Shown: positions 1,249 to 61,535 of the stretch, piece after piece | How the letters are laid out: each line of letters starts with the position of its first letter | Position numbering within the stretch: position 1 is the stretch's first letter | NCBI GenBank assembly: GCA_002774875.1 | Contig: PCYM01000005.1 | Location: forward strand, 1,979 to 65,978 | Origin: Candidatus Uhrbacteria bacterium CG10_big_fil_rev_8_21_14_0_10_50_16 | Lineage (GTDB): Bacteria; Patescibacteriota; Patescibacteriia; UBA9934; UBA11717 | Length of the DNA stretch: 64,000 nucleotides | Direction: 5' to 3' | Made by a program: the position numbers and the translations under genes | Notes under the pieces: model-generated | The model's database searches: none | The model's input: only the letters and a program-made list of their open reading frames with translations | Told to the model about the DNA's origin: nothing

Positions 1249-2160
1249 TCAGGCGTTCTGCCTGCGGTTGTGGGCGATAGCTTTGTTGATCTCTTCCTCT
1301 GCCGCGCGGACATCAGGGTCTGCTTCGGTGCTCGGCGGGATGATCCCGCCTACGATACCCGTGGCACGCGCGATCAGACCATTGTAGGTCTGCATGAGCT
1401 CTTGGAGTTGTTGTTGAGCGAGCGCGGCCTCCGATCTCGGTGCGGTTCGGATCACGTGCACGTCGTCCGACGTCTCGTTGAGGAGCTGGAGTACCACGCG
1501 GATCAGATCCCAGGCTTCATTGAGTCGAACCTGCAGGGTCTGAACAGCAGCGCCTCGATTGTTTATGTCGAGGTCTGTTGGCGCGGAGGTCTTGCTGGAA
1601 CGCAAGCGCTTCTTCTCTGCGCGGATGCTCTTGGTGAGGTTGTCTACGCGCTCAAAGAGCCGGCCTAAGTACGACGGCGTTGCACCGTTCGTGTCGCCCA
1701 GCAAGTTGACGAGACAGAGTAGCTCCGAGAGCAACGGGTTGTTGCCCGCCGCTTGCCTAATGTACAGCAAGGCTTGATCCGCTTGGCGTCGTTGCGATCG
1801 TACGCTCACCAACTTCTTTTGTACTCGGCGATCGACTCCTTCACGTTGCCGTTGTTCACGTGCAACTCGTCGAGCGACTGCCGTACTGCTCCTCCACTCC
1901 GCGAACCAGCCTGCCGGAAAGCCAAACAGCTCGGCGTAGAGGAAGGTGGCCATCGGTTCAATTACCGGGACGTTGTAGGAGAACGATCCGTCGAAATAGG
2001 TGCCCACAACACAGACCCAAAGGGCGAGTGTGCAGAGACCAATGGTTGTGATGAAGATGGCGTCTGCTGCGTCGGCCGTTCCTTGACGAACCCTGTATGC
2101 CATTGCGCCTAAAAAGACGGAGATGGTGTAGCTGCACATCAACAGGACAAAAAACCACAT
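1249..2160 (-). CDS. Hypothetical membrane-anchored coiled-coil protein; GC-rich, likely foreign
   Basis: 303-aa ORF. N-terminal hydrophobic helices, then a long charged/helical region. Codon usage is visibly more GC-rich than neighbouring genes. No recognisable catalytic motif. Confidence 0.5.
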   Translation of the reverse strand: MWFFVLLMCSYTISVFLGAMAYRVRQGTADAADAIFITTIGLCTLALWVCVVGTYFDGSFSYNVPVIEPMATFLYAELFGFPAGWFAEWRSSTAVARRVAREQRQREGVDRRVQKKLVSVRSQRRQADQALLYIRQAAGNNPLLSELLCLVNLLGDTNGATPSYLGRLFERVDNLTKSIRAEKKRLRSSKTSAPTDLDINNRGAAVQTLQVRLNEAWDLIRVVLQLLNETSDDVHVIRTAPRSEAALAQQQLQELMQTYNGLIARATGIVGGIIPPSTEADPDVRAAEEEINKAIAHNRRQNA

Positions 2161-2840: not shown

Positions 2841-5800
2841 ATGAAATACAATCACAAAGATATTGACGCAAAATGGCAGAAGCGATGGATGAGTGAGGGC
2901 GTGTTTACTATGGACGATGCGTCGGAGAAGGAAAAGTTTTACTGCTTGGTGGAGTTTCCTTATCCCTCTGGTGCGGGTCTGCACATGGGTCACCCGCGCA
3001 GTTACACCGCGCTCGATGTGTTGTCGCGCAAGCGTCGTATGGAGGGGTACAACGTGCTTTACCCAATCGGTTGGGACGCGTTTGGTCTGCCAACGGAGAA
3101 CTACGCCATCAAAACAGGTCGTAAGCCGCAAGAAGTAACGACGGAGAACATCAACACGTTTAGACGACAGTTGCAGTCGCTTGGAATCTCTTTTGATTGG
3201 TCGCGAGAGGTCAATACCACGGACCCGGCGTATTACAAGTGGACGCAGTGGATGTTTTTGGAATTTTTTAAGGCGGGGATGGCGTACAAAAAAGCCATGG
3301 CGATTAACTGGTGTGTGCGTTGTAAAATTGGTCTTGCAAACGAGGAGGTTGTAAACGGCGTATGCGAACGCTGTGGCGGCGAAGTTGAAAAACGTGATAA
3401 AGAGCAATGGATGATTGCCATAACCCGGTATGCAGACCGGCTGATTGATGATTTGAAGACCGTGGATTATTTGCCAAAGATTGCCAAGCAACAAGAAGAC
3501 TGGATTGGCAGGTCCGAGGGTGCCGAGGTGACGTTTGCATTAGAGGGAGATGTGAGTGAATATAATTTTTTGGGTCTTCATGCGTTTTGTGATGATTCGA
3601 CATCCGCTTTTTGGCCCTGGTTGCAAAAAGAACTCTCAACTCGCGGAGGGACGCTGACGGTGTTAGATTTGCCAAATTCAAGCGAGCCAACTATTGCCAA
3701 ACAGGTGCAGTACATAAGGGAGAACTATACCTTTAATGAAAAGACGATCATTCTTACGCACTCGCTTGGGGGGGTTGCGGCAATGAAGTTACTTCCAGAA
3801 TTAGATCAATCTATTAAGAAGTTAATTCTCATTGCACCGCCCACCAATCCATCTCGGTTTATGGATAAAAAGCCTCGACCGGCGTTAGACGCTTGTTGCG
3901 ATTGGTCGTTTGATTATCAGGCTATTAAAGATAAAGCGGGATCAATTATTGTTATTGCCGATGAGCAAGATCACATTGTTCCTTTGTCACAACCAAAACA
4001 GCTTGCAGATCAGTTGCACGCAGAATTTTTCATCTTCAAATCAAACACGCCTCATTTTAATGCTGTTGAGGAGCCGGTTGTACTACGTTCGATTTTGCCA
4101 CACGTAACTGTCTTCACTACGAGGCCGGATACGCTATTTGGGGCGACGTATGTGGTGTTGGCGCCGGAGCATCCGTTGATTGCAGAACTTGCGAATAGGA
4201 TTCAAAACAAAAAAGATGTGGAAGCGTATCAACAAGTCACAAAAGAAAAGACAGAGATAGAACGTGGAGATGCGACCAAGGAAAAAACAGGCGTGATGTT
4301 GAAGGGTGTGCAGGTGATTCATCCTGTCACAGGTGAAGTATTGCCCGTGTGGGTCGCAGATTACGTGCTAATGAGTTATGGCACGGGGGCGATTATGGCT
4401 GTGCCTGCACACGATGTACGTGATTATCAATTTGCAAAAACATATGGTTTGCCAATTCATCAAGTTATAGAAGCACCGATCGTTTCTGTTCCAAGTGGTA
4501 TTGTGCATCAAACAGCAGGGCAACTTACAGAACCGATTGTTGTTGATGTCGCCTGTTATACGGGGGAAGGTGTATGTGTCAACTCAGACTTTTTGAATGG
4601 GTTGGAAATTGAGGCGGCAAAAGCAAAAATGATTGAATGGTTAGAGAAGGAGGGGAAGGGCGTGCGGAAGATTAACTATCGATTGCGCGACTGGGTGTTT
4701 AGTCGCCAGCGATATTGGGGTGAGCCGATTCCATTGGTGCATTGTGATACCTGTTCGCCGGAGACGGATGGATGGGTGGCGGTGCCGATTGAACAACTGC
4801 CTGTTACGTTACCGGATGTAGAGAAATATGAGCCGACGGATAGTGGAGAATCACCTTTGGCAACGATCACGGATTGGGTCAACACCACGTGTCCGGAATG
4901 TGGCGGTCCTGCAACACGCGAGACAGACACCATGCCAAACTGGGCGGGAAGCAGTTGGTACTTTTTGCGCTACGTCGATGCCCATAATCCGGATGCCTTT
5001 GCCGATCCACAAAAACTCAAAAGATGGATGCCTGTTGATTGGTATAATGGTGGTATGGAGCACACGACGTTGCACTTGTTATATTCGCGTTTTTGGAACA
5101 AATTTTTGTTCGATCGCGGACACGTGCCAACGTCCGAGCCGTACGCAAAACGCACAAGCCATGGATTGATCCTCGCCGAAGATGGAACCAAGATGAGCAA
5201 GTCAAAAGGCAATGTGGTGAATCCGGATGAACTCGTGGAGCAATTCGGCGCAGATGCGTTGCGATTGTTGGAGTTGTTTATTGGACCGTTTGCAGAGCCG
5301 GCGCCCTACAGCCACGCGGGGATGGTGGGAACCCGACGGTTTTTGGAGAAGGTAATGGATCTACCGGGCAAGGTTGTCGAGACGGAATCGGAGGAGGTGA
5401 CGCGCGCGTTACATCAACTCATTCAAAAAGTTGGTGAGGATATTGAGACACAGGGGTACAACACGGCCGTGAGTGCGTTGATGATTTTTGTGAATGCCGT
5501 TGGTGACGGTGGAGGGCTCACAAGGCAGACGTTGCAAGCGTTTGCGTGTGTGTTATCGCCGTTTGCGCCGCATATTGCCGAGGAAGTGTGGAGCCAGGTG
5601 GGGGATGGGTTGGCGATGCAACAACCATGGCCGGCGTTTGATGCGGAACTGGCAAAAGACGTCGTGGTAACGTTGGGCGTGCAGGTGAATGGCAAAGTGC
5701 GCGGGCAGGTGACGTTGGCCGTGGATGCAACGGAGGCGCAGGCGCGTGCGGCGGCCGAGGCGGATGAACATGTACAAACCTATTTGCAGGGAAAGACGGT

Positions 5801-5852
5801 TAAGAAGTTTGTGTATGTACCTGGACGCATTGTGAGCTTTGTGGTGGTATAG
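2841..5852 (+). CDS. leuS: Leucyl-tRNA synthetase with a ~190-aa alpha/beta serine-hydrolase domain inserted at the catalytic-core/CP1 junction
   Basis: HMGH and KMSKS motifs; Zn knuckle CVRC...CERC; CP1 editing motifs TTRPDT and GTGAIMAVPAHD. Extra segment between GAEVTFALEG and VTVFTTRPDT contains THSLGG and IADEQDH...H. Start chosen at MKYNHKDIDAKWQ. Confidence 0.9.
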   Translation: MKYNHKDIDAKWQKRWMSEGVFTMDDASEKEKFYCLVEFPYPSGAGLHMGHPRSYTALDVLSRKRRMEGYNVLYPIGWDAFGLPTENYAIKTGRKPQEVTTENINTFRRQLQSLGISFDWSREVNTTDPAYYKWTQWMFLEFFKAGMAYKKAMAINWCVRCKIGLANEEVVNGVCERCGGEVEKRDKEQWMIAITRYADRLIDDLKTVDYLPKIAKQQEDWIGRSEGAEVTFALEGDVSEYNFLGLHAFCDDSTSAFWPWLQKELSTRGGTLTVLDLPNSSEPTIAKQVQYIRENYTFNEKTIILTHSLGGVAAMKLLPELDQSIKKLILIAPPTNPSRFMDKKPRPALDACCDWSFDYQAIKDKAGSIIVIADEQDHIVPLSQPKQLADQLHAEFFIFKSNTPHFNAVEEPVVLRSILPHVTVFTTRPDTLFGATYVVLAPEHPLIAELANRIQNKKDVEAYQQVTKEKTEIERGDATKEKTGVMLKGVQVIHPVTGEVLPVWVADYVLMSYGTGAIMAVPAHDVRDYQFAKTYGLPIHQVIEAPIVSVPSGIVHQTAGQLTEPIVVDVACYTGEGVCVNSDFLNGLEIEAAKAKMIEWLEKEGKGVRKINYRLRDWVFSRQRYWGEPIPLVHCDTCSPETDGWVAVPIEQLPVTLPDVEKYEPTDSGESPLATITDWVNTTCPECGGPATRETDTMPNWAGSSWYFLRYVDAHNPDAFADPQKLKRWMPVDWYNGGMEHTTLHLLYSRFWNKFLFDRGHVPTSEPYAKRTSHGLILAEDGTKMSKSKGNVVNPDELVEQFGADALRLLELFIGPFAEPAPYSHAGMVGTRRFLEKVMDLPGKVVETESEEVTRALHQLIQKVGEDIETQGYNTAVSALMIFVNAVGDGGGLTRQTLQAFACVLSPFAPHIAEEVWSQVGDGLAMQQPWPAFDAELAKDVVVTLGVQVNGKVRGQVTLAVDATEAQARAAAEADEHVQTYLQGKTVKKFVYVPGRIVSFVVV

Positions 5853-8983: not shown

Positions 8984-9011
8984 TTTGACGTTTGAGAAGT
9001 CGTGTTATACT
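8984..9011 (+). promoter_or_regulatory. Candidate promoter for the M50 protease gene (TTTGAC-16-TATACT)
   Basis: Hexamers read from the sequence; 15-16 bp spacer. Confidence 0.35.
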
Positions 9012-9020
9012 CGCAGAACT

Positions 9021-9671
9021 ATGTTAAACCTCTTATTTGATCAACCCGCGTTATTCCTCGTCGTTCTTTTGGCGATTGTGTCGGCGCTTAGTTTTCATGA
9101 ATTTGCGCACGCGTTTATTGGATATACGTTAGGAGATACCACCGCGCAGCGACTTGGACGGCTCACACTCAATCCACTTGCGCACATTGATTGGTTGGGA
9201 TTACTCATGTTGGTCACGGTTGGATTTGGGTGGGGAAAACCGGTGCCATTTAATCCGCATAATCTCAAGTTTAAAACGTGGGGTCCGGTGTTTGTAGCAT
9301 TTGCCGGACCTGCATCGAATCTTTTATTCGCGCTTGTGTCCACGGCATTATTTTGGGTGTTTGCCTATTCGGGTCTTTTGTCGGCGGACAATGCGCTTAT
9401 GATGTTCTTTGGATTCTCGGTGGTCATTAATCTCGCACTCATGTTCTTTAATCTTATTCCGTTGCCGCCGCTTGATGGTTCAAAATTGTTGTTGCTTGTT
9501 CTCGACAAACCAAAATATGTGCAAGCGCGGTTTTGGATTGAGACACGGGGCTTTTGGATTTTGATCGGTGTGTTGGTTGTTGATTCGTTTACCGGTATTA
9601 ACGCATTTGGATGGTTATTTAATCTCGTATCACGCGTGGCAAATCTCTTGCTCGGCGGTGCCTTGTTATAA
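9021..9671 (+). CDS. Site-2 protease family (peptidase M50) membrane metalloprotease
   Basis: HEFAHA HExxH motif within a TM helix; NLIPLPPLDGSKLL (NxxPxxxLDG) motif; polytopic membrane protein. Confidence 0.75.
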   Translation: MLNLLFDQPALFLVVLLAIVSALSFHEFAHAFIGYTLGDTTAQRLGRLTLNPLAHIDWLGLLMLVTVGFGWGKPVPFNPHNLKFKTWGPVFVAFAGPASNLLFALVSTALFWVFAYSGLLSADNALMMFFGFSVVINLALMFFNLIPLPPLDGSKLLLLVLDKPKYVQARFWIETRGFWILIGVLVVDSFTGINAFGWLFNLVSRVANLLLGGALL

Positions 9672-9685
9672 GTTACCTCACTGTT

Positions 9686-9892
9686 TTAAAAAAAAGTTCG
9701 ACCGGCCTCCATGTGGGGCTGGTTTTTAGGAAGAGCGATTGGAACGTCTACGTTGAATGGCCAGTGGATCATGTGGTCCACAAGGATTCCCACAACGACG
9801 TTTGCGAGCCCAAACCAGCTGTTTACGGGGTCAGCTCCCCAATGGAACAGGATGTCTCCACCGAGTCCAAGAATGGTCATCGTCAGAAGCAC
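9686..9892 (-). CDS. Small membrane protein (GTG start), in frame with and directly downstream of the 36-aa ORF; possibly one gene interrupted by an amber codon
   Basis: MLLTMTILGLGGDILFHWGADPVNSW... hydrophobic; frame continuity verified base by base. Confidence 0.4.
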   Translation of the reverse strand: MLLTMTILGLGGDILFHWGADPVNSWFGLANVVVGILVDHMIHWPFNVDVPIALPKNQPHMEAGRTFF

Positions 9893-9907
9893 GCCAAAGG
9901 CGATTTT

Positions 9908-10018
9908 CTAATTACGGTTCATGAACGCAATGGACTCGTCTTGCAGTTGAGAGCAGAGGGACGAAATCGGATCAATGATCCCGACCATGAACACAAGGAA
10001 CAGAATATACTCAAACAT
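9908..10018 (-). CDS. 36-aa hydrophobic small ORF with a strong RBS (GGAGGTG), ending at an in-frame TAG followed by a continuing ORF
   Basis: MFEYILFLVFMVGIIDPISSLCSQLQDESIAFMNRN; the same frame continues into the 9686-9892 ORF. Confidence 0.4.
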   Translation of the reverse strand: MFEYILFLVFMVGIIDPISSLCSQLQDESIAFMNRN

Positions 10019-10112
10019 ACGCACCTCCAGTGACAAAGCAGCGGTTTGGAGGAAAATGTTAATAGATAAAAGGAGATTTTGGTTTGTTTGACCCTCAATT
10101 GGTCGTTTCTTA

Positions 10113-10141
10113 TTGACAAAATCAGGCCTATCTTGTATCTT
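10113..10141 (+). promoter_or_regulatory. Promoter for rpsL (TTGACA-17-TATCTT)
   Basis: Consensus -35 with 17-bp spacer, ~110 nt upstream of the rpsL ATG, leaving a typical str-operon leader. Confidence 0.5.
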
Positions 10142-10252
10142 CGCAGCATCTTATGGCGGCTCTACAAGCCAAAATGGATACCTTACTCATCGATCTTGTG
10201 CAGTACCTCTTAGGCGGAGGGAAGTCATCCACAAGACCGTAATCGTCATAAA

Positions 10253-10669
10253 ATGCCTACCATTAACCAATTGGTGCGAAAAGGTCGCCCAAAAGCGAAG
10301 CATAAGAGCAAAGTTCCAGCTCTTGGTATTACGCAAGACAGTTTGCACCGCAAACGCGGGAAGCACGACGCTCCGTTCAAGCGTGGCGTGTGTATCCGTG
10401 TGTATACGGCAACTCCTAAAAAGCCTAACTCGGCTTTGCGAAAAGTTGCACGTGTTCGACTTTCAAATGGAATCGAGGTAACAGCCTATATTCCAGGAGA
10501 GGGTCACAACTTACAAGAGCACTCCGTGGTGATGCTTCGTGGAGGTCGTGTGAAAGACCTTCCAGGTGTGCGCTACCACATTGTTCGCGGTATGTATGAT
10601 ACGCAAGGAATTGAGGGGCGTAATCAGAGCCGATCTAAATATGGAACTCGACGACCGAAAAAGTCGTAA
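10253..10669 (+). CDS. rpsL: 30S ribosomal protein S12
   Basis: [12 protein letters not shown]...[11 protein letters not shown] signature. Confidence 0.95.
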
Positions 10670-10689
10670 GGGACTCTTAAATACAGCCT

Positions 10690-11157
10690 ATGCGAGGTAA
10701 AAAAGCCCCAAAGCGAATCGTGAATCCTGATCCAAAATTTGGAAACATGATGGTCGCAAAATTGATTAACTATGTGATGTTGGATGGAAAGAAGACGATC
10801 GCACAAGACGTTGTGTATAACGCGTTTGCCCTTATTTCCGAGAAGTCCAAAGTGGATCCGATTGATATCTTTACACAAGCCATGGATAACGTGATGCCAA
10901 ACCTCGAGGTAAAAAGCAAACGTGTTGGTGGAGCCAACTATCAAATCCCAATGCCTGTGCGTGGTGATCGTCGTATTTCCTTGGCATTCCGATGGATCCT
11001 CAACGCAAGCCGTTCTAAGAAAGGTTCTCCTATGGCGGAGCGCTTGGCATCTGAGCTTATGGAAGCCGCAGAGGGAACAGGAGCTGCCGTAAAGAAGAAA
11101 GAAGATGTGCAACGTATGGCCGAGGCCAACAAGGCGTTCGCACACTTTGCGCGATAA
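10690..11157 (+). CDS. rpsG: 30S ribosomal protein S7
   Basis: S7 sequence; adjacent to rpsL. Confidence 0.95.
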   Translation: MRGKKAPKRIVNPDPKFGNMMVAKLINYVMLDGKKTIAQDVVYNAFALISEKSKVDPIDIFTQAMDNVMPNLEVKSKRVGGANYQIPMPVRGDRRISLAFRWILNASRSKKGSPMAERLASELMEAAEGTGAAVKKKEDVQRMAEANKAFAHFAR

Positions 11158-11244
11158 TTTGCAAGAAACAAGGACTGGGATGGAACGCTTCAGCGCTCGC
11201 CCAGTCCTCTTGTTCCTTTAGACTTGAATACAAACATTCTTTAT

Positions 11245-13335
11245 ATGCCCAGAGAGTTCCCGTTAGATCATGTTCGAAACATTGGAATTATTGCCCACAT
11301 TGATGCGGGTAAGACGACCGTTACAGAACGCATTCTTTTTTACACCGGAAAAAAGCACAAACTTGGTGAAGTGCACGAGGGAGAAGCGACCATGGACTGG
11401 ATGGAGCAAGAGCAGGAGCGTGGAATCACTATTACGTCTGCTGCAACCACGTGTTTTTGGAAAGATTACAACATCAACATTATTGATACCCCAGGGCACG
11501 TAGACTTTACCGTGGAGGTGGAGCGATCATTGCGTGTGTTGGATGGAGGTGTTGTGGTGTTCGACGGTGTGGCCGGCGTGGAACCACAATCGGAAACGGT
11601 GTGGCGACAGGCGGACAAGTACCGCGTGCCTCGTATGTGTTTGGTCAACAAACTTGACCGTACGGGTGCCGACTTCATGAAGGACTTGGATTCCATTCGT
11701 ACACGACTTACCAAAAAGGCCCATCCTATCCAATTGCCAATCGGCGTGGAGAGTGATTTTATTGGTATTATCGATTTGTTAAAAATGAAAGCCTTCTTTT
11801 ATCGAGATGATGAAGGAAAGGTGATTGATGAAGTAGAGATCCCAGATGAATACAAAGCAGAAGCCGACAAATGGCGCGCAAGTTTGGTAGAGGCGATCGT
11901 GGAGAATGACGAGATGCTCATGGAAAAATACCTCGCAGGAGAGGCGTTGACTTACGACGAACTTGTTGCGGGATTGCGTGCAGGTGTGTTGGGATTAAAT
12001 GTTATTCCTGTGCTTGTTGGATCGGCACTAAAGAACAAAGGTGTGCAGATGTTGTTGGATGCGGTGAATATGTATTTGCCAGGTCCATTGGACGTGGAGC
12101 CTGTCGTGGGAACAGATCCAGACAATGCTGAGACAAAAATCCCAATTGTTGCCGGAGACGACCAGCCCGTTGCGGCATTGGCCTTTAAGATCGCAACGGA
12201 TCCATTTGTGGGAAAGTTGGTCTTTATTCGCATCTATTCAGGTGTGCTTAAGTCTGGTTCTTACATTTTGAATGCATCGACCGGTCAAAAAGAGCGTATT
12301 GGACGATTGGTTAAATTGCATGCGAACGATCGAGAAGAGGTACAGGAAGGATATGCGGGAGATATTGTGGCGGCTGTTGGACTCAAAGAAGTTCGAACAG
12401 GACACAGTTTGTCTGACCTCGCGCACCCAATTTTGTTGGAGAGCATCACATTCCCAGAGCCGGTTATCTCGATCGCTGTGGAACCAAAAACCAAGGCCGA
12501 CCAAGAGAAAATGGGAGTCGCCTTGTCAAAATTGGCAGAAGAAGACCCAACGTTCCGTGTGCGCACCGACTCGGAGACCAACCAAACGATTATTTCTGGA
12601 ATGGGAGAGTTACACTTGGATGTGCTTGTGGACCGTATGAAGCGCGAGTTTAGCGTGGAGGTGAACGTGGGCGCACCGCAGGTTTCTTATCGTGAGTCTA
12701 TTCGTGGTGAGGCAGAGGCCGAAGGCAAGTTTGTGCGACAGTCTGGTGGTCGTGGACAGTATGGTCACGTGGTCATTAAGATCGAGCCAAACGAGCCAGG
12801 AAAAGGATACGAATTCCTCAACGAGATTAAGGGCGGAGCTGTGCCTCGTGAATACATCGAACCAGCAAACAAGGGAATTCAAGAAGCATTGGACAGCGGT
12901 ATTTATGCCGGTTACCCAGTGATTGATGTGAAGGTGCACATGATCGATGGTTCTTACCATGACGTGGACTCCTCCGAAGTTGCCTTTAAGTTGGCTGGGT
13001 CGATGGCGATTAAGGCTGCTGCGCTGAAGGCTGGCATTAAATTGTTGGAGCCAATCATGAAGGTGGAGGTGGTAACGCCTGAGGAATCTATGGGAGACGT
13101 GATTGGAGACCTTAATGCAAAACGAGGTCAGATCAGTGAGATGACGGACCGTGGTGAAGCAAAATTGATCCACGCGCTCGTTCCATTATCCGAGATGTTT
13201 GGATACGCAACACAATTGCGATCGCTCTCACAGGGACGCGCAAGCTCCTCTATGGAATTTGAGAAGTACATGGAAGTGCCAAACACAATCGCAGAGCAAA
13301 TTAAGACGGAGCGAACAGGTGAGGGGGCACGATAG
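11245..13335 (+). CDS. fusA: Elongation factor G
   Basis: [26 protein letters not shown]1 motif; full EF-G domain content; start chosen at MPREF. Confidence 0.95.
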
Positions 13336-13364
13336 AGATTGATGAACGAATACAGTTTCGTTCA

Positions 13365-13402
13365 CAAAACCGGTTCTCACGAGCCGGTTTTGTGTTTGTA
13401 AG
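13365..13402 (+). terminator. Intrinsic terminator after fusA
   Basis: aaccgg ttctcacgag ccggtt hairpin followed by ttgtgtttgtaagatt. Confidence 0.6.
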
Positions 13403-13641
13403 ATTAAGAAGGGCCAATGACTATCAGGGCTTGACAGATAGAATAAGTGTGCTACAAAGGGGGTATCGAACGATTCGATACAGACAACGATATGAAACTA
13501 TTCACGACACAACTCTGGATGAGTCACCGCAGTGCGCCTCAGGGCGTAGTGGTTGATAAAGCATTTATTGCAAATGCAGGAGTTTGTGTTGAGCGAGATA
13601 TTTTAAGAAATTGAGTTTATTTTTAAACTGGATTCTTAGAA

Positions 13642-13676
13642 CGTCTTGCGCAATAGGCAAGACGTTTGTGTTTTAG
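13642..13676 (+). terminator. Second hairpin terminator, with no annotated gene upstream
   Basis: cgtcttgc gcaatag gcaagacg perfect 8-bp stem followed by tttgtgtttt. Confidence 0.45.
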
Positions 13677-13717
13677 GGTGAGATTGGTCTTTACAGCCCC
13701 GCAAATGCGGGAGAAAG

Positions 13718-15595
13718 GTGCAAATGGCCAACGTCGATGTAGATGATCTGCGGTCGGAAGGTCCTAGCAACTGGCGTGAGTTTCTGATTCTGACGAGCGG
13801 TAGCCTCCAGACCCTCAAGTGGGTTTGGGCGCATTTTGCTGGGTCGGAGGGTCGGAGCCGTGTTAAAAGTATGGCGGTATGGATGCTGCCAAATACGGCG
13901 TTCAAGCTGCTGCCGTTCTTGGCGATTGGACGATTGGTTACGGCGGTTCAGGAACAGGACACACCCGTGGCTCGCGTTGCAACGATAGGATTCTTCCTCT
14001 CGTTGGTTCTCATGGAGCTCACGGGAAATCGGATCCGCGCGCATCGCGAGAAGGCTTTGGCAGCCTGCGCTGTGCAGATCGACAAGCGACTCTCGGAGCT
14101 GTTCTTCCATCACGGCATTGGCCAGTTCTTGTCTGAGGGAAGTCGTCTGAGTGCGGCGAACGTAGAGAAAGCTCGCGGTCGCGTGTGGTCCGTCATGGAT
14201 CTCATGATGTTTGAGGGGATTGCGGCCCTCATGGACATTGGCCTCGCCTACGTGTTGGTGTGGCTGTTGTCGCCGCGCAGCGGATTAGTTATGACGGGAC
14301 TGTTTGTTATTCACGCGTTCTTCTCTGTCTATATGAGTGGGCGTGTGATGCGTGACGGCGTGCCGATTGATCGTGAATATCGTGCACATAACGTCTATCG
14401 GACGGACCGTTGGTCTCTCTTCCGACGCGTGATTATGGCCGGACGCGTAAGAGAGGAAATCGACTACATGACCGAGTGGATGGCTCGCATCTCACGTAAG
14501 GACAATGGCTTGTGGCTTTGGTTTAACGACCAGATCAGCATTCGTGGCGTCGTGATGTCTGTGTTCTTCAGCTTGTGCGTGTGGTGGGAAGTGACGTGTG
14601 CGTTTCAAGGTATACTCGCCGTTGCGTCCATGGTTCCTTTGTTCTCATGGTCGTACAACTTGTTCATGAACTTTTGGCGACTGGGACACATGGAGCGACA
14701 GCTCAACTGGAATATGCCGAGTGTACAGGCGATGGTCGTCGCGTTGACGATCCCAACCGATGTGCCCGTTAAGGCAGACGCCCTTCAGGTATTGCCCAAC
14801 GGTCCACTCGGGATCGAATTGCGCGACGTGAGCTACGCGTATCCGTCTGAAACCTCTCCGACGGAGCTTGTACCTGTGTTAAGTCATGTAAATCTCGTGA
14901 TTCCTCCGGGCTGCAAAGTGGGTTTGGTGGGTGAGACAGGGTCGGGCAAGTCGACGATCGGGAATTTGCTCTTGCGATTCATGGATCCTACGTCGGGAGC
15001 GATTCTGGTGAATGGGTACAATCTGCGTGATTTGGACTTGTCCAGTTATTGTCGCGCGATTGGCGACATTCCTCAGCATCCCGAGATTCTGGAAGGAACA
15101 CTGAGGGACAACGTGCTCTACAATGTGCCTCTTGCGGATCGTGCGGCGTTTTCCGACGCGGACGTGTGGAGCGTGCTTGCAAAAGTCCAGTTGGCCGATC
15201 ACAAGCGGTTCACGAACGGTTTGGATACGCGTCTGGGAAAGAACGGCATGAAGTTGTCTGGTGGTCAGCGTCAGCGGCTTGCCATTGCCTCGGCGATCAT
15301 CCAGCACCTCCGATTCGTGGTGATCGATGAGGCTACGAGTGCCCTGGACGCCAAGACGGAACGCAGGGTCCAAAAGGGAATTGAGGCGATGCTGGGCGAG
15401 AACACCACGGCACTCATGATCGCACATCGGCTGCCAACGCTCAGGTTCTGTGACATGATCGTCATCCTTCGTCCGGCCTCGTCTCTGGCTCCTGGTGAGT
15501 CGCAGATTGAGTACGTGGCCACCTCGCTGGAGGACGCCTACGCGCATTCGCCCACGTTTAGGGGCTTTGCGGATGAACTGGGAATGGCCTTCTAA
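13718..15595 (+). CDS. ABC exporter (fused TMD-NBD, half transporter); GC-rich
   Basis: Walker A GETGSGKST; ABC signature LSGGQRQR; Walker B VVIDEATSALD; N-terminal polytopic TMD. Sits between fusA and tuf. Confidence 0.85.
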   Translation: MQMANVDVDDLRSEGPSNWREFLILTSGSLQTLKWVWAHFAGSEGRSRVKSMAVWMLPNTAFKLLPFLAIGRLVTAVQEQDTPVARVATIGFFLSLVLMELTGNRIRAHREKALAACAVQIDKRLSELFFHHGIGQFLSEGSRLSAANVEKARGRVWSVMDLMMFEGIAALMDIGLAYVLVWLLSPRSGLVMTGLFVIHAFFSVYMSGRVMRDGVPIDREYRAHNVYRTDRWSLFRRVIMAGRVREEIDYMTEWMARISRKDNGLWLWFNDQISIRGVVMSVFFSLCVWWEVTCAFQGILAVASMVPLFSWSYNLFMNFWRLGHMERQLNWNMPSVQAMVVALTIPTDVPVKADALQVLPNGPLGIELRDVSYAYPSETSPTELVPVLSHVNLVIPPGCKVGLVGETGSGKSTIGNLLLRFMDPTSGAILVNGYNLRDLDLSSYCRAIGDIPQHPEILEGTLRDNVLYNVPLADRAAFSDADVWSVLAKVQLADHKRFTNGLDTRLGKNGMKLSGGQRQRLAIASAIIQHLRFVVIDEATSALDAKTERRVQKGIEAMLGENTTALMIAHRLPTLRFCDMIVILRPASSLAPGESQIEYVATSLEDAYAHSPTFRGFADELGMAF

Positions 15596-15638
15596 TACGT
15601 TGCCTCGTCGGGATCTCCGGCGGGGCGCATATTTTTTA

Positions 15639-15666
15639 TTGACGCGACCCTGTATCGTGATAACAT
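15639..15666 (+). promoter_or_regulatory. Candidate promoter for the acidic small protein (TTGACG-16-TAACAT, with TG extended -10)
   Basis: Hexamers read from the sequence immediately after the ABC gene stop. Confidence 0.35.
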
Positions 15667-15675
15667 CAACCCACT

Positions 15676-16083
15676 ATGAGCCAACAACTACAAGAAATAC
15701 TGCATTTTGCACAAAAAACAGGGGACAAAGTGATCGTTACAGACAATGAGGGAAAGGAGCCAATGGTGATATTGCCATTTACAGCCTATCAAAGTCTCGT
15801 TGAACGGCTGGGTTCGGTTTCCTTTACGCCCGTCTCTTCTGAGAATGAATCGGAGGAAATCGACGCATTAGCCGATTTACCTGAGGAATTTTTTGCAACA
15901 GAGTCCAACAACGTGGATGATCTTGCTTTAGAGATCCCAGAAGCCCCAACAAAGCAAAATCGCGATCAAATCTGGCCCGTTTCTGGATCAAAAAAGGTAG
16001 AAAATACGCCAGCTTTAGCGGAAACAGATACATCGGATGCGCCGGAGGAAGAGGAGCAATTCTACTTAGAACCCGTTGAATAG
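15676..16083 (+). CDS. Hypothetical acidic protein with an N-terminal Phd/YefM-like antitoxin-type region and a long acidic tail
   Basis: N-terminus KVIVTDNEGKEPMVILPFTAYQSLVE resembles the Phd/YefM fold pattern; C-terminal ~80 aa is D/E-rich; no adjacent toxin ORF. Confidence 0.5.
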   Translation: MSQQLQEILHFAQKTGDKVIVTDNEGKEPMVILPFTAYQSLVERLGSVSFTPVSSENESEEIDALADLPEEFFATESNNVDDLALEIPEAPTKQNRDQIWPVSGSKKVENTPALAETDTSDAPEEEEQFYLEPVE

Positions 16084-16221
16084 GCCTCGTGGATAGAATC
16101 GGTACCCAGGGTACTTGCACGGTTTTCGATTCCATGGTACATTCCGCTCGCATTTCTTTACTAACCTCATTCATATTTTGATAAGAACCTCTGTCCTCGG
16201 ACAAGTTCAGTCTAATGTCAT

Positions 16222-17412
16222 ATGGCAGATGTATTCGAACGTGGGAAACCACATGTTAACGTCGGTACGATTGGTCACGTTGACCACGGTAAGACGACCC
16301 TTACGGGAGCAATTTTAAAAGTACTCCACGCACGTGGATTCAAGGCCTCGGCAGATTCTGTTGATGCTCTTGATAAGGCTCCAGAATCACGAAACCGTGG
16401 TATTACGATCGCGACCGCTCACGTTGAGTATGAGTCAGCAAATCGTCACTACGCCCACGTTGACTGTCCAGGTCACGCAGACTACGTGAAAAACATGATC
16501 ACCGGTGCAGCTCAAATGGATGCTGCAATCCTCGTGGTAAACGCCGCAGATGGTCCTATGCCACAAACGCGTGAGCACATTCTTTTGGCTCGCCAGGTTG
16601 GAGTACCTACGATCGTGGTGTTCTTGAACAAGATCGACCAGGTAGATGATCCTGAATTGATCGACTTGGTGGAAGAAGAAATTCGTGATTTGTTGAAGAA
16701 ATACGATTACGATGGAGACAACACGCCTATTATTCGTGGATCTGCGCTTAAGGCGCTTGAGAATCCTACAGATGAAGAGGCAGCAGCTCCTATTTTGAAG
16801 CTTATCGAGACATTAGACACCTATGTTGCGGAACCGGTTCGCGACATGGACAAGCCATTCCTTTTGCCAGTGGAAGATGTTTTCTCCATTGAAGGACGTG
16901 GAACGGTGGTAACGGGACGTATCGAGCGTGGAACTATCAACATCAACACGGAAGTGGAGATTGTAGGTATCGATGAAACGCAAAAGTCGACCGTTACAGG
17001 AATCGAGATGTTTAACAAGCAGCTCGAGCAGGGTCGTGCTGGAGATAACGCCGGTTTGTTGCTTCGCGGAATCCGCAAGGAGGATGTACAGCGTGGACAG
17101 GTGTTGTGTCTCCCAGGATCCATTACACCTCACACAGAGTTTGAGGCAGAGGTATACGCATTGACCAAAGAGGAAGGTGGACGTCATAAGCCATTCTTCA
17201 AAGGCTACAAGCCACAGTTCTACATCCGTACGACAGACGTAACAGGTGAGACCGTGGACTTGGGCGGTGCAGAAATGGTGATGCCAGGAGACAAGGTCAA
17301 TATGCGCATCAAATTGATTGTGCCGGTTGCACTTGAGGATCAAACACGTTTTGCTATCCGTGAGGGTGGCCGAACGGTTGGTGCTGGAGTCGTTACAAAA
17401 ATTCTTGACTAA
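16222..17412 (+). CDS. tuf: Elongation factor Tu
   Basis: [20 protein letters not shown] motifs; 396 aa. Confidence 0.97.
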
Positions 17413-17468
17413 GGGAATCGAGGGGCAGCATCGCTGTCTCTCTTTCTCGTGAACATCGTACCTTCTAT

Positions 17469-17795
17469 ATGGCTGAAAAAACGGCAACGGATCAAAGAAT
17501 CCGAATCAAAATTCGCGCTTACGATCACAAGATCATTGATCAGGCAACAGCTACGATCATGAAAACCGCAGAGCGAACCGGTGCAAAGGTTTTGGGACCC
17601 GTTCCACTTCCAACCGCCCGTCGCATGTATACCGTCAACCGATCGACGTTCGTTCATAAAACGTCGCGCGAACAATATGAGATGCGCGTCCATAAGCGCT
17701 TGATCGATATTGTTCAGCCCTCCGAGCGGACCGTAGAGGCGCTCATGAGTCTCAACTTGCCATCTGGTGTGGACGTTGAGATCAAAATGTCATAA
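17469..17795 (+). CDS. rpsJ: 30S ribosomal protein S10
   Basis: [15 protein letters not shown] signature. Confidence 0.95.
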
Positions 17796-18190
17796 AAACA
17801 ACCAGCTTTGCTGGACCCTGAGCTATGATCAGGGATGTGTGCATTCTGTGCTCACGTCCCTGGTCATAGACCCGGACTGTTTCCTAAAACATGGAAGAAA
17901 GATCTTACGTCAACGGTGACGAAGAAAACCTTCCAGGGTTAGACCGAAACAGAAGAAAGGATAAACTCGCTACAATAAAACCCCCGCAACTCTTGTGCCT
18001 ACGTTGTGGCTAGAAGCCCGAATAGTCGACCCTCCGTGGTTGTGTATTTGGACTTCTGGTTTTTACTTAGAACCAGTCGGGATCAATCCGTGAGTATGTG
18101 GACCTGTTCAAGAAGAATAATCAACAATCGTTGGTTGCTCATCAGGAGGCGTGTCTGCATCGTTACGCGAAATCCCTAATTTAAGACGAT

Positions 18191-18802
18191 ATGAAATGCA
18201 TCATCGGACGAAAACTTGAGATGACCCAGGTCTTCCGTGAGGATGGTACCGTTGTTCCTGTGACGTTGATCCAGGCCGGACCCTGCACGGTGACCGATGT
18301 GCGCACAGTTGACGCGAATGGCTATGCGGCTGTTCAACTCGGCTATGGCGTGCAAAAAGCTTCACGCGTGGCTAAGGCGCAGCTTGGACAGTGGCTCGAA
18401 TCAGGACCATTCCAACTTGTGAAAGAGGTGCGCGTGAGTGACCCATCGAATTACGAAGTGGGTGCAACGGTTGACGCTTCAATTTTTGAGGCAGGAGATA
18501 AAATCGATGTGATCGGCACATCCAAGGGTCGTGGGTTCCAAGGTGTTGTGAAGCGTCACGGATTCCGTGGTTCTAAAACAACCCATGGTAACAAAGACCA
18601 ACAGCGCATGCCGGGTTCCATTGGAGCCACGGGTCCACAGCGTGTGTTTAAGGGGATGCGAATGGCAGGACGCATGGGTGGTGATCGCACCACGGTACAG
18701 AACCTCGAGATCGTCGAGGTACGTCCAAATGGATTAGTCGCCGTAAAAGGTGCAGTTCCTGGAAGCCGAAACAGTCTTATTGTTCTAAAGAGCGTTAAGT
18801 AA
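18191..18802 (+). CDS. rplC: 50S ribosomal protein L3
   Basis: L3 sequence. Confidence 0.95.
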   Translation: MKCIIGRKLEMTQVFREDGTVVPVTLIQAGPCTVTDVRTVDANGYAAVQLGYGVQKASRVAKAQLGQWLESGPFQLVKEVRVSDPSNYEVGATVDASIFEAGDKIDVIGTSKGRGFQGVVKRHGFRGSKTTHGNKDQQRMPGSIGATGPQRVFKGMRMAGRMGGDRTTVQNLEIVEVRPNGLVAVKGAVPGSRNSLIVLKSVK

Positions 18803-59990: not shown

Positions 59991-60034
59991 GTGTCGATGG
60001 ATCGTGAAGAATTGTTGAGGATTAAGATAAGTTT

Positions 60035-61048
60035 ATGGATAATACGGAATTGAATAACGAAATCATTATTTATACTGGCGACGGTGGTCAGCCGATTATT
60101 CAGGTACGAATTGAAGGGGAGACCGTGTGGCTTAGTCAAACGCAATTGGCAGAATTATTCGACACGACGAAACAAAACGTCAGCCTTCATATTCAGAATA
60201 TTTACGAAGAAGGCGAGTTAACAAAAGAAGCAACTGTCAAGGAATACTTGATTGTTCAAAAAGAGGGGAATAGGGAGGTTTCACGACGGATTGAACATTA
60301 TAGTCTCGATCTTATTATTTCTCTTGGCTATCGCGTTAGATCGAAGATTGCTACACATTTTCGCCAATGGGCCACGGCACGACTTCGTGAGTATATCGTG
60401 AAAGGCTTTACAATGGACGATGAACGGTTAAAAGGAAATGGCGGCGGACAGTATTGGAAAGAACTTCTTGATCGCATTCGCGATATTCGTTCCAGCGAAA
60501 AGATGCTTTATCGTCAAGTGCTTGATTTGTATGCGACGAGTATTGATTATGATCCGAAAAGTACTGAGTCAATAATATTTTTTAAAGTCGTGCAAAACAA
60601 ATTGCATTACGCGACGAACCAACACACGGCCGCAGAGACCATCCATGAACGCGCGGATGCAGAAAAAGATTTCATGGGACTTACAACGTTTGCAGGAGCA
60701 ATGCCTGTATTATCAGAAGTTGGGACGGCTAAAAATTATCTGACAGAAGATGAACTTTTCCGTTTAAATCGTCTCGTTTCAGCATTTTTTGATCTTGCAG
60801 AAATTAAAGCACAAGAGCATACAGCAATGCACATGGCCGATTGGGTTGCAGAGCTTGATAAATTTGCAGAGAACTTTGGTAAGGGTGTGCTCACCGATGC
60901 GGGTTCCGTTAGTCACGAACAAGCGAAAAAGAAAGTAGCAGTAGAATATCGTAAGTATCAGGCGAAGACCCTTTCCCCAGTTGAAGAAGCGTATTTGGAG
61001 AGTGTGAAGGCGTTAGGAAAGGAAGTGGAGAAGCGAGTAAAAAAGTAA
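60035..61048 (+). CDS. rhuM: RhuM-family (virulence-associated, Fic/DOC-neighbourhood) protein
   Basis: N-terminus IIIYTGDGGQPIIQVRIEGETVWLSQTQLAELFDTTKQNVSLHIQNIYEEGEL matches the RhuM family pattern; AT-rich gene. Confidence 0.75.
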   Translation: MDNTELNNEIIIYTGDGGQPIIQVRIEGETVWLSQTQLAELFDTTKQNVSLHIQNIYEEGELTKEATVKEYLIVQKEGNREVSRRIEHYSLDLIISLGYRVRSKIATHFRQWATARLREYIVKGFTMDDERLKGNGGGQYWKELLDRIRDIRSSEKMLYRQVLDLYATSIDYDPKSTESIIFFKVVQNKLHYATNQHTAAETIHERADAEKDFMGLTTFAGAMPVLSEVGTAKNYLTEDELFRLNRLVSAFFDLAEIKAQEHTAMHMADWVAELDKFAENFGKGVLTDAGSVSHEQAKKKVAVEYRKYQAKTLSPVEEAYLESVKALGKEVEKRVKK

Positions 61049-61119
61049 TTCGTCGGTACGTACATCGACTAATTGTTGAGCTCCACACCCCATTATTACA
61101 TTGCGTCTGGAGGGGTTGA

Positions 61120-61144
61120 GTGGTGTTTGTGATAAGATTTGATT
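61120..61144. repeat. 25-bp direct repeat, right copy
   Basis: Identical to 59966-59990; the preceding hairpin is degenerate compared with the hisS terminator. Confidence 0.8.
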
Positions 61145-61186
61145 GATGTATTTCAAAATCCTATTTTGTTCTAAGAACATTGTCCT

Positions 61187-61534
61187 ATGAAAACACTGTC
61201 AGATTTAACAACAAAGATTGTAGCTTTTAGGGATGCTCGAGATTGGAAACAGTTTCACAACCCAAAAGATTTAGCACTATCTTTAGTGTTGGAGGCCGCA
61301 GAGGTTATGGAACATTTTCAATGGAAAAATTCAGAAGAAATGGAGAAATATGTCCAAACGAATAAATCTGATATTGGTGATGAACTAGCGGATGTTTTGT
61401 ATTGGGTTTTACTAATGAGCCACGATCTCGATATTGATATTTTAGACGCACTTGAAAAGAAAATATTAAAAAATGAAGCAAAGTACCCGGTCGATAAAGC
61501 AAAAGGGCTGCACACAAAATACACGGAGCTTTAA
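61187..61534 (+). CDS. MazG-like nucleotide pyrophosphohydrolase (small, single domain)
   Basis: EVMEHFQWK...ELADVLYWVLLMSHDLDID pattern (EExxE...DxxD metal-binding helices) typical of the MazG/YpjD family. Confidence 0.7.
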   Translation: MKTLSDLTTKIVAFRDARDWKQFHNPKDLALSLVLEAAEVMEHFQWKNSEEMEKYVQTNKSDIGDELADVLYWVLLMSHDLDIDILDALEKKILKNEAKYPVDKAKGLHTKYTEL

Positions 61535-61535
61535 T

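Follow-up and report, generated by a model that had tools for sequence, protein, structure and literature searches.

The interval between fusA and tuf, which encode elongation factors G and Tu (EF-G and EF-Tu), in a 64,000-nt stretch of contig PCYM01000005.1 from Candidatus Uhrbacteria bacterium CG10_big_fil_rev_8_21_14_0_10_50_16 probably consists of separate transcription units, and not of one broken operon with a foreign insert. These units are a terminated fusA, a gene for an ATP-binding cassette (ABC) pump gated by an attenuator, a gene for an acidic protein linked to tuf, and a slot of variable content. Throughout, the window is this whole stretch, coordinates are window positions, and L-numbers refer to homologous loci retrieved for comparison. 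We consider as established the gene order and its conservation, the alternative RNA structures with their covariation, and the predicted fold of the N-terminal domain (N-domain) of the acidic protein, while the promoters are established only as sequence motifs.

fusA and the open reading frame (ORF) of the ABC gene are separated by a spacer of 382 bp. A previous reading of this DNA, made from the letters alone (the sequence-only reading), had described two terminators after fusA and an AT-rich region of about 300 bp full of hairpins. Both terminators were found (hairpins at 13363-13394 and 13639-13667), and the hairpins exist, but the AT enrichment of the spacer is mild (GC about 0.45, compared with about 0.49). 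Nor is it merely filled with hairpins, as that reading overlooked a conserved ORF of 40 codons and, with it, what appears to be a leader-peptide transcription attenuator. The spacer and the ABC gene comprise the following features:

13363-13394, + strand: intrinsic terminator of fusA, with arms of 14 nt (13363-13376 and 13381-13394), a 4-nt loop and a T-rich tract after it

13431-13458, + strand: candidate promoter of the leader-ABC unit (TTGACA, 16 nt, TACAAA), read from the sequence

13492-13614, + strand: leader ORF of 40 codons (MKLFTTQLWMSHRSAPQGVVVDKAFIANAGVCVERDILRN), a proposed regulatory upstream ORF

13593-13649, + strand: antiterminator hairpin, formed by the 5' strand of the terminator with the last seven leader codons, the stop and the spacer

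13639-13676, + strand: attenuator terminator from the terminator scan, with a stem-loop at 13639-13667 followed by the tract GTGTTTTAG (starting GTGTTTT), and a minimum free energy (MFE) of -15.8 kcal/mol

13724-15595, + strand: ABC half-transporter gene (PF00005; ORF from GTG 13718, 625 aa)

15601-15638, + strand: terminator 3' of the ABC gene from the terminator scan (hairpin 15601-15627), with a 12-bp stem including eight GC pairs, then CATATTTTTT, and an MFE of -19.8 kcal/mol

The spacer apparently acts as a ribosome-sensing transcription attenuator of the BmrB-BmrCD type. In the mechanism that we propose, a sigma-70-type promoter would drive the leader ORF, whose last seven codons, together with the stop and the next 35 nt, would fold into a strong hairpin. 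Since this hairpin would sequester the 5' strand of the intrinsic terminator, it would act as an antiterminator. A ribosome reaching the leader stop would cover the 5' arm of the antiterminator and melt the hairpin, so that the terminator would form and transcription would end before the ABC gene. With a ribosome stalled or lagging upstream on the leader, the antiterminator would instead stay in place and RNA polymerase would read into the ABC gene. Stalling might be caused by translation-targeting compounds or by starvation and, by analogy, the inducing signal would be translation stress.

Several lines of evidence argue for the two alternative structures. The antiterminator of the window has an MFE of -27.5 kcal/mol (z-score -7.41), and none of 200 shuffled sequences is equally stable. 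A hairpin followed by a U-tract occurs at the terminator position in 20 of 20 loci and, when the 3' strand of the terminator is left out, the MFE fold of all 20 contains a long hairpin that joins the final 20-25 nt of the ORF and its stop codon to the spacer and the terminator 5' strand. The z-score of this antiterminator lies between about -4.3 and -7.7 in 16 of the 20 loci. In 15 of the 20, the best duplex partner of the terminator 5' strand falls in the 48 nt that end the ORF. In an alignment of the seven Uhrbacterial sequences, which we used to measure covariation, 79.9% of the antiterminator cells are paired, compared with 35-55% when the partners are slid, and six pairs carry compensatory changes. 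For the terminator, 94.7% of the cells are paired, four pairs carry compensatory changes, and none of 500 shuffles, a control that does not amount to a probability, reaches the observed score. Covariation supports both mutually exclusive helices, and alignment columns 69 and 70 co-vary with both of their partners. The succession of leader and terminator is retained across the 20 loci although their GC content ranges from about 0.37 to 0.66. Three sequence features of ribosome-mediated attenuators of the leader-peptide type, such as bmrBCD or the trp leader, are thus seen: a short ORF between promoter and regulated gene, an intrinsic terminator, and an antiterminator that overlaps the leader and excludes the terminator. 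Rfam scans of positions 9000-18500 and of the spacer returned only sub-threshold matches to microRNA precursors, which reflect the long hairpin.

The leader ORF is conserved in length and position more than in sequence. Orthologues of 38-40 codons are present in L003, L005, L014 and L046. A metagenome scan with the membrane domain specific to the ABC family added 28 loci, and overall a short ORF lies 5' of the ABC homologue in 21 loci, with a length of 19-56 codons (median 42) and an end 66-173 nt before the ABC start. Its stop precedes the terminator by 17-30 nt in all 20 loci that were measured. At the position of the candidate leader-ABC promoter, L003 and L005 carry TTGACA and TATAAC separated by 16 nt, and most homologous loci have a CTTGACA box 5' of the leader ORF. 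The -10 element can be placed in more than one way, as a scan with the promoter consensus returns 13417-13444 instead of 13431-13458. Between the AAAGGGGG box and the leader ATG we also observed a perfect 8-bp hairpin (GTATCGAA-CGA-TTCGATAC, 13463-13481), which could bring a distant sequence resembling a Shine-Dalgarno element near the leader start codon.

The closest known system is bmrB-bmrCD of Bacillus subtilis, in which ribosome-mediated transcription attenuation of an ABC multidrug exporter was experimentally dissected (PMC4191407). Both have a short leader ORF, of 53 codons in bmrB and 40 in the window, that ends about 110-120 nt 5' of an ABCB-type exporter gene, and both have an intrinsic terminator and a mutually exclusive antiterminator that overlaps the 3' part of the leader. 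In bmrB-bmrCD, efficient translation of the leader favors termination and slowed ribosomes favor read-through (PMC4191407), and the same is proposed here. The two also differ in several ways: we found no similarity between their leader or RNA sequences and no Rfam or NCBIfam match, and the terminator lies 3' of the leader stop here and inside the ORF there. Furthermore, the antiterminator of the window is more stable than its terminator (-27.5 and -15.8 kcal/mol, respectively), and the pump consists of one half-transporter, which presumably acts as a homodimer and whose transmembrane domain (TMD) is not recognized by the Pfam ABC_membrane model. The element is a new family of a known regulatory kind. 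Bacteria of the Candidate Phyla Radiation are uncultured and their regulation is almost unknown, and the attenuator offers a concrete example of leader-peptide attenuation in this group and in other uncultured lineages. The value of the locus lies in its annotation and in the experiments that can now be designed, and no principle is overturned.

A different role for the 40-codon ORF would be to encode a peptide that is secreted, for example a bacteriocin, a signal or the precursor of a ribosomally synthesized and post-translationally modified peptide (RiPP), with the ABC protein as its dedicated exporter and the hairpin only setting the ratio of peptide to pump transcripts. The conserved pairing of peptide and ABC gene and the recurrence of some peptide residues at both ends are consistent with this possibility, and bacteriocin operons usually have a terminator after the structural gene. 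However, in every one of the 20 loci the ORF ends in sequence that can pair with the terminator 5' strand, with covariation, a property that a terminator only setting stoichiometry would not need. Substitutions in the peptide are mostly non-synonymous (10 non-synonymous and 3 synonymous between L003 and L005) while the length of the ORF and the position of its stop are kept, as expected of a regulatory leader more than of a bioactive peptide. In addition, the ABC protein has no C39 peptidase domain according to Pfam, no family in Pfam or NCBIfam matches the leader peptide, and neither does any RiPP precursor family. In L003 and L005 a gene for a radical S-adenosylmethionine (SAM) protein and one for a TrmB regulator adjoin the leader-ABC pair, which had raised the possibility of a RiPP or bacteriocin cluster. 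We set this candidate aside because the radical SAM protein carries a BATS domain, as in BioB and HydE, with no SPASM domain detected, and because its gene is absent from the window, which has no maturase either. Taken together, a secreted peptide appears unlikely, and we retain the attenuator as the probable function of the spacer.

The gene controlled by the attenuator most likely starts at ATG 13724 (623 aa) and not at GTG 13718, because the public annotation (P0010), the N-termini of the homologues and the upstream sequence GAGAAAGG agree on it. An exact-sequence look-up of the 625-aa ORF gave no match, and the database holds the 623-aa form. The protein, which matches COV06_02575, is, judging by its sequence, probably an ABCB-type (type IV fold) half-transporter composed of a TMD and a nucleotide-binding domain (NBD). 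The NBD matches PF00005 (ABC_tran, E 3e-26), and the Walker A motif (GETGSGKST), the ABC signature (LSGGQRQR) and the Walker B motif (VVIDEATSALD) can be read in the translation. PF00664 (ABC_membrane), the six-helix domain expected at the N-terminus of such exporters, has no match in the window protein and is carried by two members of the family, and NCBIfam alignments to NdvA and HlyB cover residues 71-586. Its nearest solved relatives are ABCB exporters, and PADLOC returned only generic ATPase matches. The family is small and divergent, with about 15 full-length clusters in a database of 5.8 billion proteins. By analogy, the protein is most likely an efflux pump, and we propose, also by analogy, that it would export translation-targeting compounds. 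As its gene is apparently gated by the attenuator, the pump is predicted to be inducible by translation stress. The attenuator marks this divergent family as likely pumps induced by translation stress or antibiotics, and as candidates for resistance pumps.

With the window proteins as probes, no translation genes were found beside the non-Uhrbacterial ABC homologues. In two metagenome contigs of low GC content (L060, about 5594-5818, and L061, about 764-988), a gene whose product ends in ...KKARKSPQWSKR lies directly 5' of the ABC homologue, with a plain promoter and no leader ORF in between. This product looks like ribosomal protein uS9 and, if this holds, the two loci look like another ribosomal-operon neighborhood for the pump family.

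The leader-ABC module occupies the same place in several Uhrbacteria. It lies between fusA and the acidic gene in seven sequenced species (the window, L003, L005, L012, L014, L015 with L007, L008 and L042, and L046), where the ABC gene either lies directly upstream of the acidic gene or has one to three genes in between. In an eighth Uhrbacterial contig, P0012, for which only the gene table was available, the order of the ABC, acidic and tuf genes is as in the window. The Uhrbacterial ABC proteins are 32-80% identical and group together at the base of a rough neighbor-joining tree of the family, and their identity does not track that of fusA (34% and 87%, respectively, between the window and L003). 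fusA and the acidic gene lie between 99 bp and 9.3 kb apart, with a gene content that differs between loci, while in four further loci no fusA was present within the 6.6-10 kb retrieved upstream of the acidic gene. Among the genes found in this slot are those of an EamA transporter, a second ABC transporter, TrmB together with a radical SAM protein, and an APH-type kinase accompanied by a small membrane protein.

More often than the ABC gene, the slot carries a gene for a 337-aa APH-type phosphotransferase (PF01636, E 1e-20), its commonest cargo, which occurs in L018, L021, L022, L029, L031, L036, L040, L041 and L070, usually with a divergent membrane protein of about 185 aa. The APH family includes aminoglycoside kinases, and this cargo may represent a second link to translation inhibitors. 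Another recurrent cassette is common to L003 (3514-5349) and L005 (3402-5273) and consists of a 94-aa ORF, the leader, the ABC gene, TrmB and the radical SAM gene. TrmB is 68% identical between the two loci and the last 16 leader residues are identical, while the ABC proteins share only 32% identity and that of L003 lies on a long branch. This suggests either allele replacement or very fast evolution of the ABC gene.

UBA11717 (L011), the closest relative of the window genome, with fusA and tuf 96% identical, has the order fusA-acidic gene-tuf and no ABC gene. Its 126-bp gap between fusA and the acidic gene holds only the fusA terminator and the acidic promoter, with a clean junction. A recent loss of the module fits this absence at least as well as a gain. 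No direct or inverted repeats were found flanking 13336-15675, and no integrase or transposase was recognized among the ORFs. The simplest reading is that the leader-ABC module is an old occupant of the slot, which was ancestrally present and lost in UBA11717. Exchange among Uhrbacteria through the conserved flanks could also have taken place.

The composition of the ABC gene bears on the same question. As the sequence-only reading had remarked, the gene is GC-rich relative to its neighbors, and the contrast is real but modest. The gene has a GC content of 0.557 and a GC content at third codon positions (GC3) of 0.667, compared with a mean GC3 of 0.493 (standard deviation 0.080) in the 46 other ORFs of the window with 150 aa or more (z +2.2). 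GC3 is as high or higher in the ORFs at 1249-2160 (- strand, 0.674) and 42822-43436 (- strand, 0.844). In terms of synonymous codon-usage distance, the ABC gene ranks second among the 14 ORFs of at least 400 aa, and its overall z-score of +0.16 is blunted because the set includes short, probably spurious antisense ORFs. GC3 is higher than in the neighboring genes in all seven Uhrbacterial orthologues (z +2.1 to +18), and it follows the host in most non-Uhrbacterial homologues. Since the excess is common to the seven orthologues, it does not date a recent transfer. Elsewhere in the window, the ORF at 42822-43436 has the most deviant codon usage, and a 3-kb block at about 60000-63000 has a GC content of about 0.38, compared with about 0.49 for the window.

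These data allowed us to assess whether a GC-rich ABC exporter and an orphan Phd/YefM antitoxin were recently inserted by horizontal transfer into an intact fusA-tuf operon. The GC3 excess of the ABC gene, the clean junction in a relative without the leader-ABC module, the lack of agreement between ABC and fusA identities, and the existence of ABC homologues in high-GC lineages would all be expected from such an event. On the other hand, the ABC and acidic genes do not form the single insertion that had been proposed: the acidic gene lies 5' of tuf in every Uhrbacteria locus examined, irrespective of the presence of the ABC gene, which is missing, for instance, from L001, L002 and L011. The comparison of fusA-tuf synteny returned an acidic-tuf order throughout the lineage and the leader-ABC module at one site in seven species, in deeply diverged copies that are all rich in GC3. 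Moreover, the codon-usage distance of the ABC gene is unremarkable, and mobility genes and flanking repeats are missing. A contrast in GC3 beside highly conserved genes is insufficient to call a recent horizontal transfer; the composition, previously taken to suggest one, leaves it unsupported, and we judge such an origin to be very improbable.

A further unit of the interval is formed by the gene of the acidic protein and its promoter, followed by the promoter of tuf:

15639-15666, + strand: promoter of the acidic gene (TTGACG, 16 nt, TAACAT, with an upstream TG), from the promoter scan

15676-16083, + strand: gene of the acidic protein (135 aa), with an N-domain of predicted Phd/YefM fold at about residues 1-47, a disordered acidic tail and the C-terminus EEQFYLEPVE

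16115-16143, + strand: promoter of tuf (TTGCAC, 17 nt, TGgTACATT, an extended -10)

The acidic gene is a fixed component of the lineage. We found it in 31 species-representative loci, all from metagenome-assembled genomes of Uhrbacteria or Patescibacteria, after scanning one genome per species. It lies 95-186 nt 5' of tuf in 28 of the 28 loci where both genes fall within the retrieved DNA, and the same order is seen in contig P0012 and in the distant members L070 and L071. The block CTTGC(A/G), 17 nt, TGnTAnAnT, which corresponds to the tuf promoter, is kept across the alignment of the 28 acidic-tuf intergenic regions. The protein is 100% identical to COV06_02580 and has nine matching protein clusters, and a profile search returned 810 related proteins. 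Many of the species-representative genomes with the acidic-tuf order (L012, L013, L017, L019, L024 and others) are titled 'uncultured Gammaproteobacteria bacterium', which is almost certainly a labeling artefact of the depositing pipeline.

The family has a common build, with an N-domain of about 45 residues, a variable, acidic and disordered tail of 50-170 residues (median isoelectric point 4.2, net charge about -22), and the C-terminal motif EEQFYLEPVE, which is invariant or nearly so in alignments of 33 and 107 sequences. In agreement with the D/E-rich tail seen in the initial inspection, the window protein contains 30 acidic (D/E) and 8 basic (K/R) residues and has an isoelectric point of 4.05, and its tail is modeled as disordered. 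The N-terminus had also been called Phd/YefM-like, which is borne out by the predicted fold and by a match to PhdYeFM_antitox (PF02604) at residues 3-48, although for the window protein this match is sub-threshold (E 8.5e-5, 22.7 bits compared with a gathering cut-off of 29.8). It covers profile positions 11-54 of 74 and lacks the first beta-strand of the Pfam model. The profile is matched by 29 of 33 family members (E at most 0.01). An AlphaFold2 model based on the 107-sequence alignment returned an alpha-beta-beta-alpha N-domain with a predicted local distance difference test (pLDDT) score of 82-89 and a disordered tail, and the N-domain is therefore assigned, on the strength of this model, to the Phd/YefM fold. 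A Foldseek search with a first model (9-sequence alignment, pLDDT 59) found nothing significant, with Phd second at E about 1, and the deeper alignment was needed. A profile search of the family against PDB sequences gave only chance matches (E about 0.7), and no PADLOC model matches the protein. We also considered a second match to FYLEPV at about 18061 as a shared motif and rejected it, as the region is non-coding and relatives do not preserve the frame.

The acidic gene appears to have a promoter of its own, as had been suspected. In most of the 33 homologous loci TTGAC(A/G) and TAAGAT or TAAAAT, separated by about 17 nt, end 7-9 nt before the ATG, and in the window the -10 ends 9 nt before it, which implies a leaderless or nearly leaderless mRNA. 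In the subclade of the window the -10 is bracketed by a short inverted repeat (TGAT-N3-ATCA, 15658-15668), and other subclades carry GGC-TAAAAT-GCC or GGGC-TACAAT-GCCC around it. These repeats could be operators for autoregulation.

The relationship of the family with Phd/YefM type II antitoxins (PF02604, as in Phd-Doc and YefM-YoeB) deserves a closer look. Like these antitoxins, the acidic protein is small and acidic, has a promoter tight against the start codon, and ends in a disordered C-terminal region with a conserved motif. Unlike them, it has no adjacent toxin, lacks the first beta-strand, falls in the window below the Pfam gathering threshold, and carries a strongly acidic tail of 50-170 residues with an end motif invariant in the class. 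No toxin gene adjoins it in about 30 loci, which all have tuf downstream and differ in the genes upstream. The sequence-only reading was hence right that the protein has no partner toxin, whereas 'orphan Phd/YefM antitoxin' under-describes a family with an invariant C-terminus and a fixed synteny with tuf.

It is nonetheless conceivable that the protein is a genuine type II antitoxin or a relic of such a protein, with its toxin encoded elsewhere or lost. Its N-domain is related to Phd/YefM in both homology and fold, its disordered region with a conserved tip resembles a toxin-binding tail, and some databases label members as 'Phd/YefM family antitoxin'. All this has to be set against the constant presence of tuf, in place of a toxin, downstream of the gene, against a match that begins only at profile position 11, against the lack of a match to any PADLOC model, and against a C-terminal motif that is invariant in a class where fusA identity to the window genome goes down to 67%, which speaks for a highly conserved partner more than for a co-evolving toxin. 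On balance, we find an antitoxin highly doubtful.

The acidic protein is most likely a DNA-binding regulator, possibly of its own gene, or a partner-binding factor tied to the tuf-S10 unit, and not an antitoxin, given that the Phd/YefM type of fold serves dimerization and DNA binding. The invariance of the tail points to a very conserved partner, and the fixed position beside tuf makes the translation apparatus or the adjacent promoters obvious candidates. More speculatively, and in our estimate improbably, the protein may be an antitoxin-derived factor specific to Uhrbacteria, in which EEQFYLEPVE docks onto EF-Tu or another core component of translation or transcription and a dimeric N-domain binds the adjacent promoters, coupling expression of the tuf-S10 unit to the state of translation. 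If so, this coupling factor would lie beside a pump that would itself be switched on by stalled ribosomes. A precedent linking a Phd-family protein to EF-Tu is the Phd-Doc system, where Doc phosphorylates EF-Tu, and a literature search on Uhrbacteria, EF-Tu and antitoxins found nothing relevant. The delta subunit of RNA polymerase (RpoE) of Firmicutes, which also has a folded N-domain and a long acidic disordered tail, provides a further lead. It resembles the acidic protein in combining a small folded domain with a polyanionic tail that could mimic nucleic acid, and it differs in having a HARE-HTH instead of a Phd/YefM domain, with no detected homology. Antitoxin ancestry, the invariant C-terminal motif and the synteny with tuf together suggest a candidate lineage-specific partner of the core translation block.

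Several observations weigh against this account of the interval. In four of the 20 loci the z-score of the antiterminator is weak (-0.8 to -2.6), and the covariation, including its shuffle control, comes from seven related sequences. The direction of the switch is deduced from the geometry and the energies of the RNA. The leader ORF of the window has no obvious Shine-Dalgarno sequence at normal spacing, no leader ORF of at least 25 codons is present in five homologous loci (L043, L049, L055, L060 and L061), and that of L045 has only 19 codons. Some leader residues recur, namely M-x3-4-(H/N)-N-(L/I) at the N-terminus and QD(I/M)(L/V)xN at the C-terminus, which could mean that the peptide itself is functional. 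The persistent GC3 excess of the ABC gene is not accounted for.

The genes that surround the interval belong to the str and S10 regions, all on the same strand:

10253-10669, + strand: rpsL, from the ORF calls

10690-11157, + strand: rpsG, from the ORF calls

11224-13335, + strand: fusA (EF-G), with five of five EF-G Pfam domains, the last gene of the rpsL-rpsG-fusA unit

16222-17412, + strand: tuf (EF-Tu), with three EF-Tu Pfam domains, the first gene of the tuf-rpsJ-rplC unit

17469-17795, + strand: rpsJ, followed by the S10 and spc genes

The order rpsL-rpsG-fusA ... tuf-rpsJ on one strand is that of the classical str operon (rpsL-rpsG-fusA-tufA) of E. coli and most bacteria, and both ORFs and Pfam domains agree with the sequence-only reading that the link to tuf is interrupted by the ABC exporter and the acidic gene. 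In contrast to the classical operon, fusA here has its own terminator and tuf its own conserved promoter, and the two are never adjacent in the Uhrbacteria loci examined, where at least the acidic gene lies between them, often with several kb of variable cargo. The fusA terminator has an MFE of -22.3 kcal/mol in the window, and an equivalent hairpin lies 3' of fusA in L011, L003 and L005.

Downstream of tuf, the gap between rpsJ and rplC (17796-18190, 395 nt) shows no conserved reading frame and matches no Rfam family. Its predicted fold is very stable, with a free energy of -144 kcal/mol (z -7.06), and sequence blocks are kept in five other Uhrbacteria loci, with compensatory changes in 17 of the 51 predicted pairs and one terminator-like block (GGCTAGAAGCC...GACTTCTGGTTTTT). 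This gap may contain a lineage-specific structured leader or non-coding RNA within the S10 operon.

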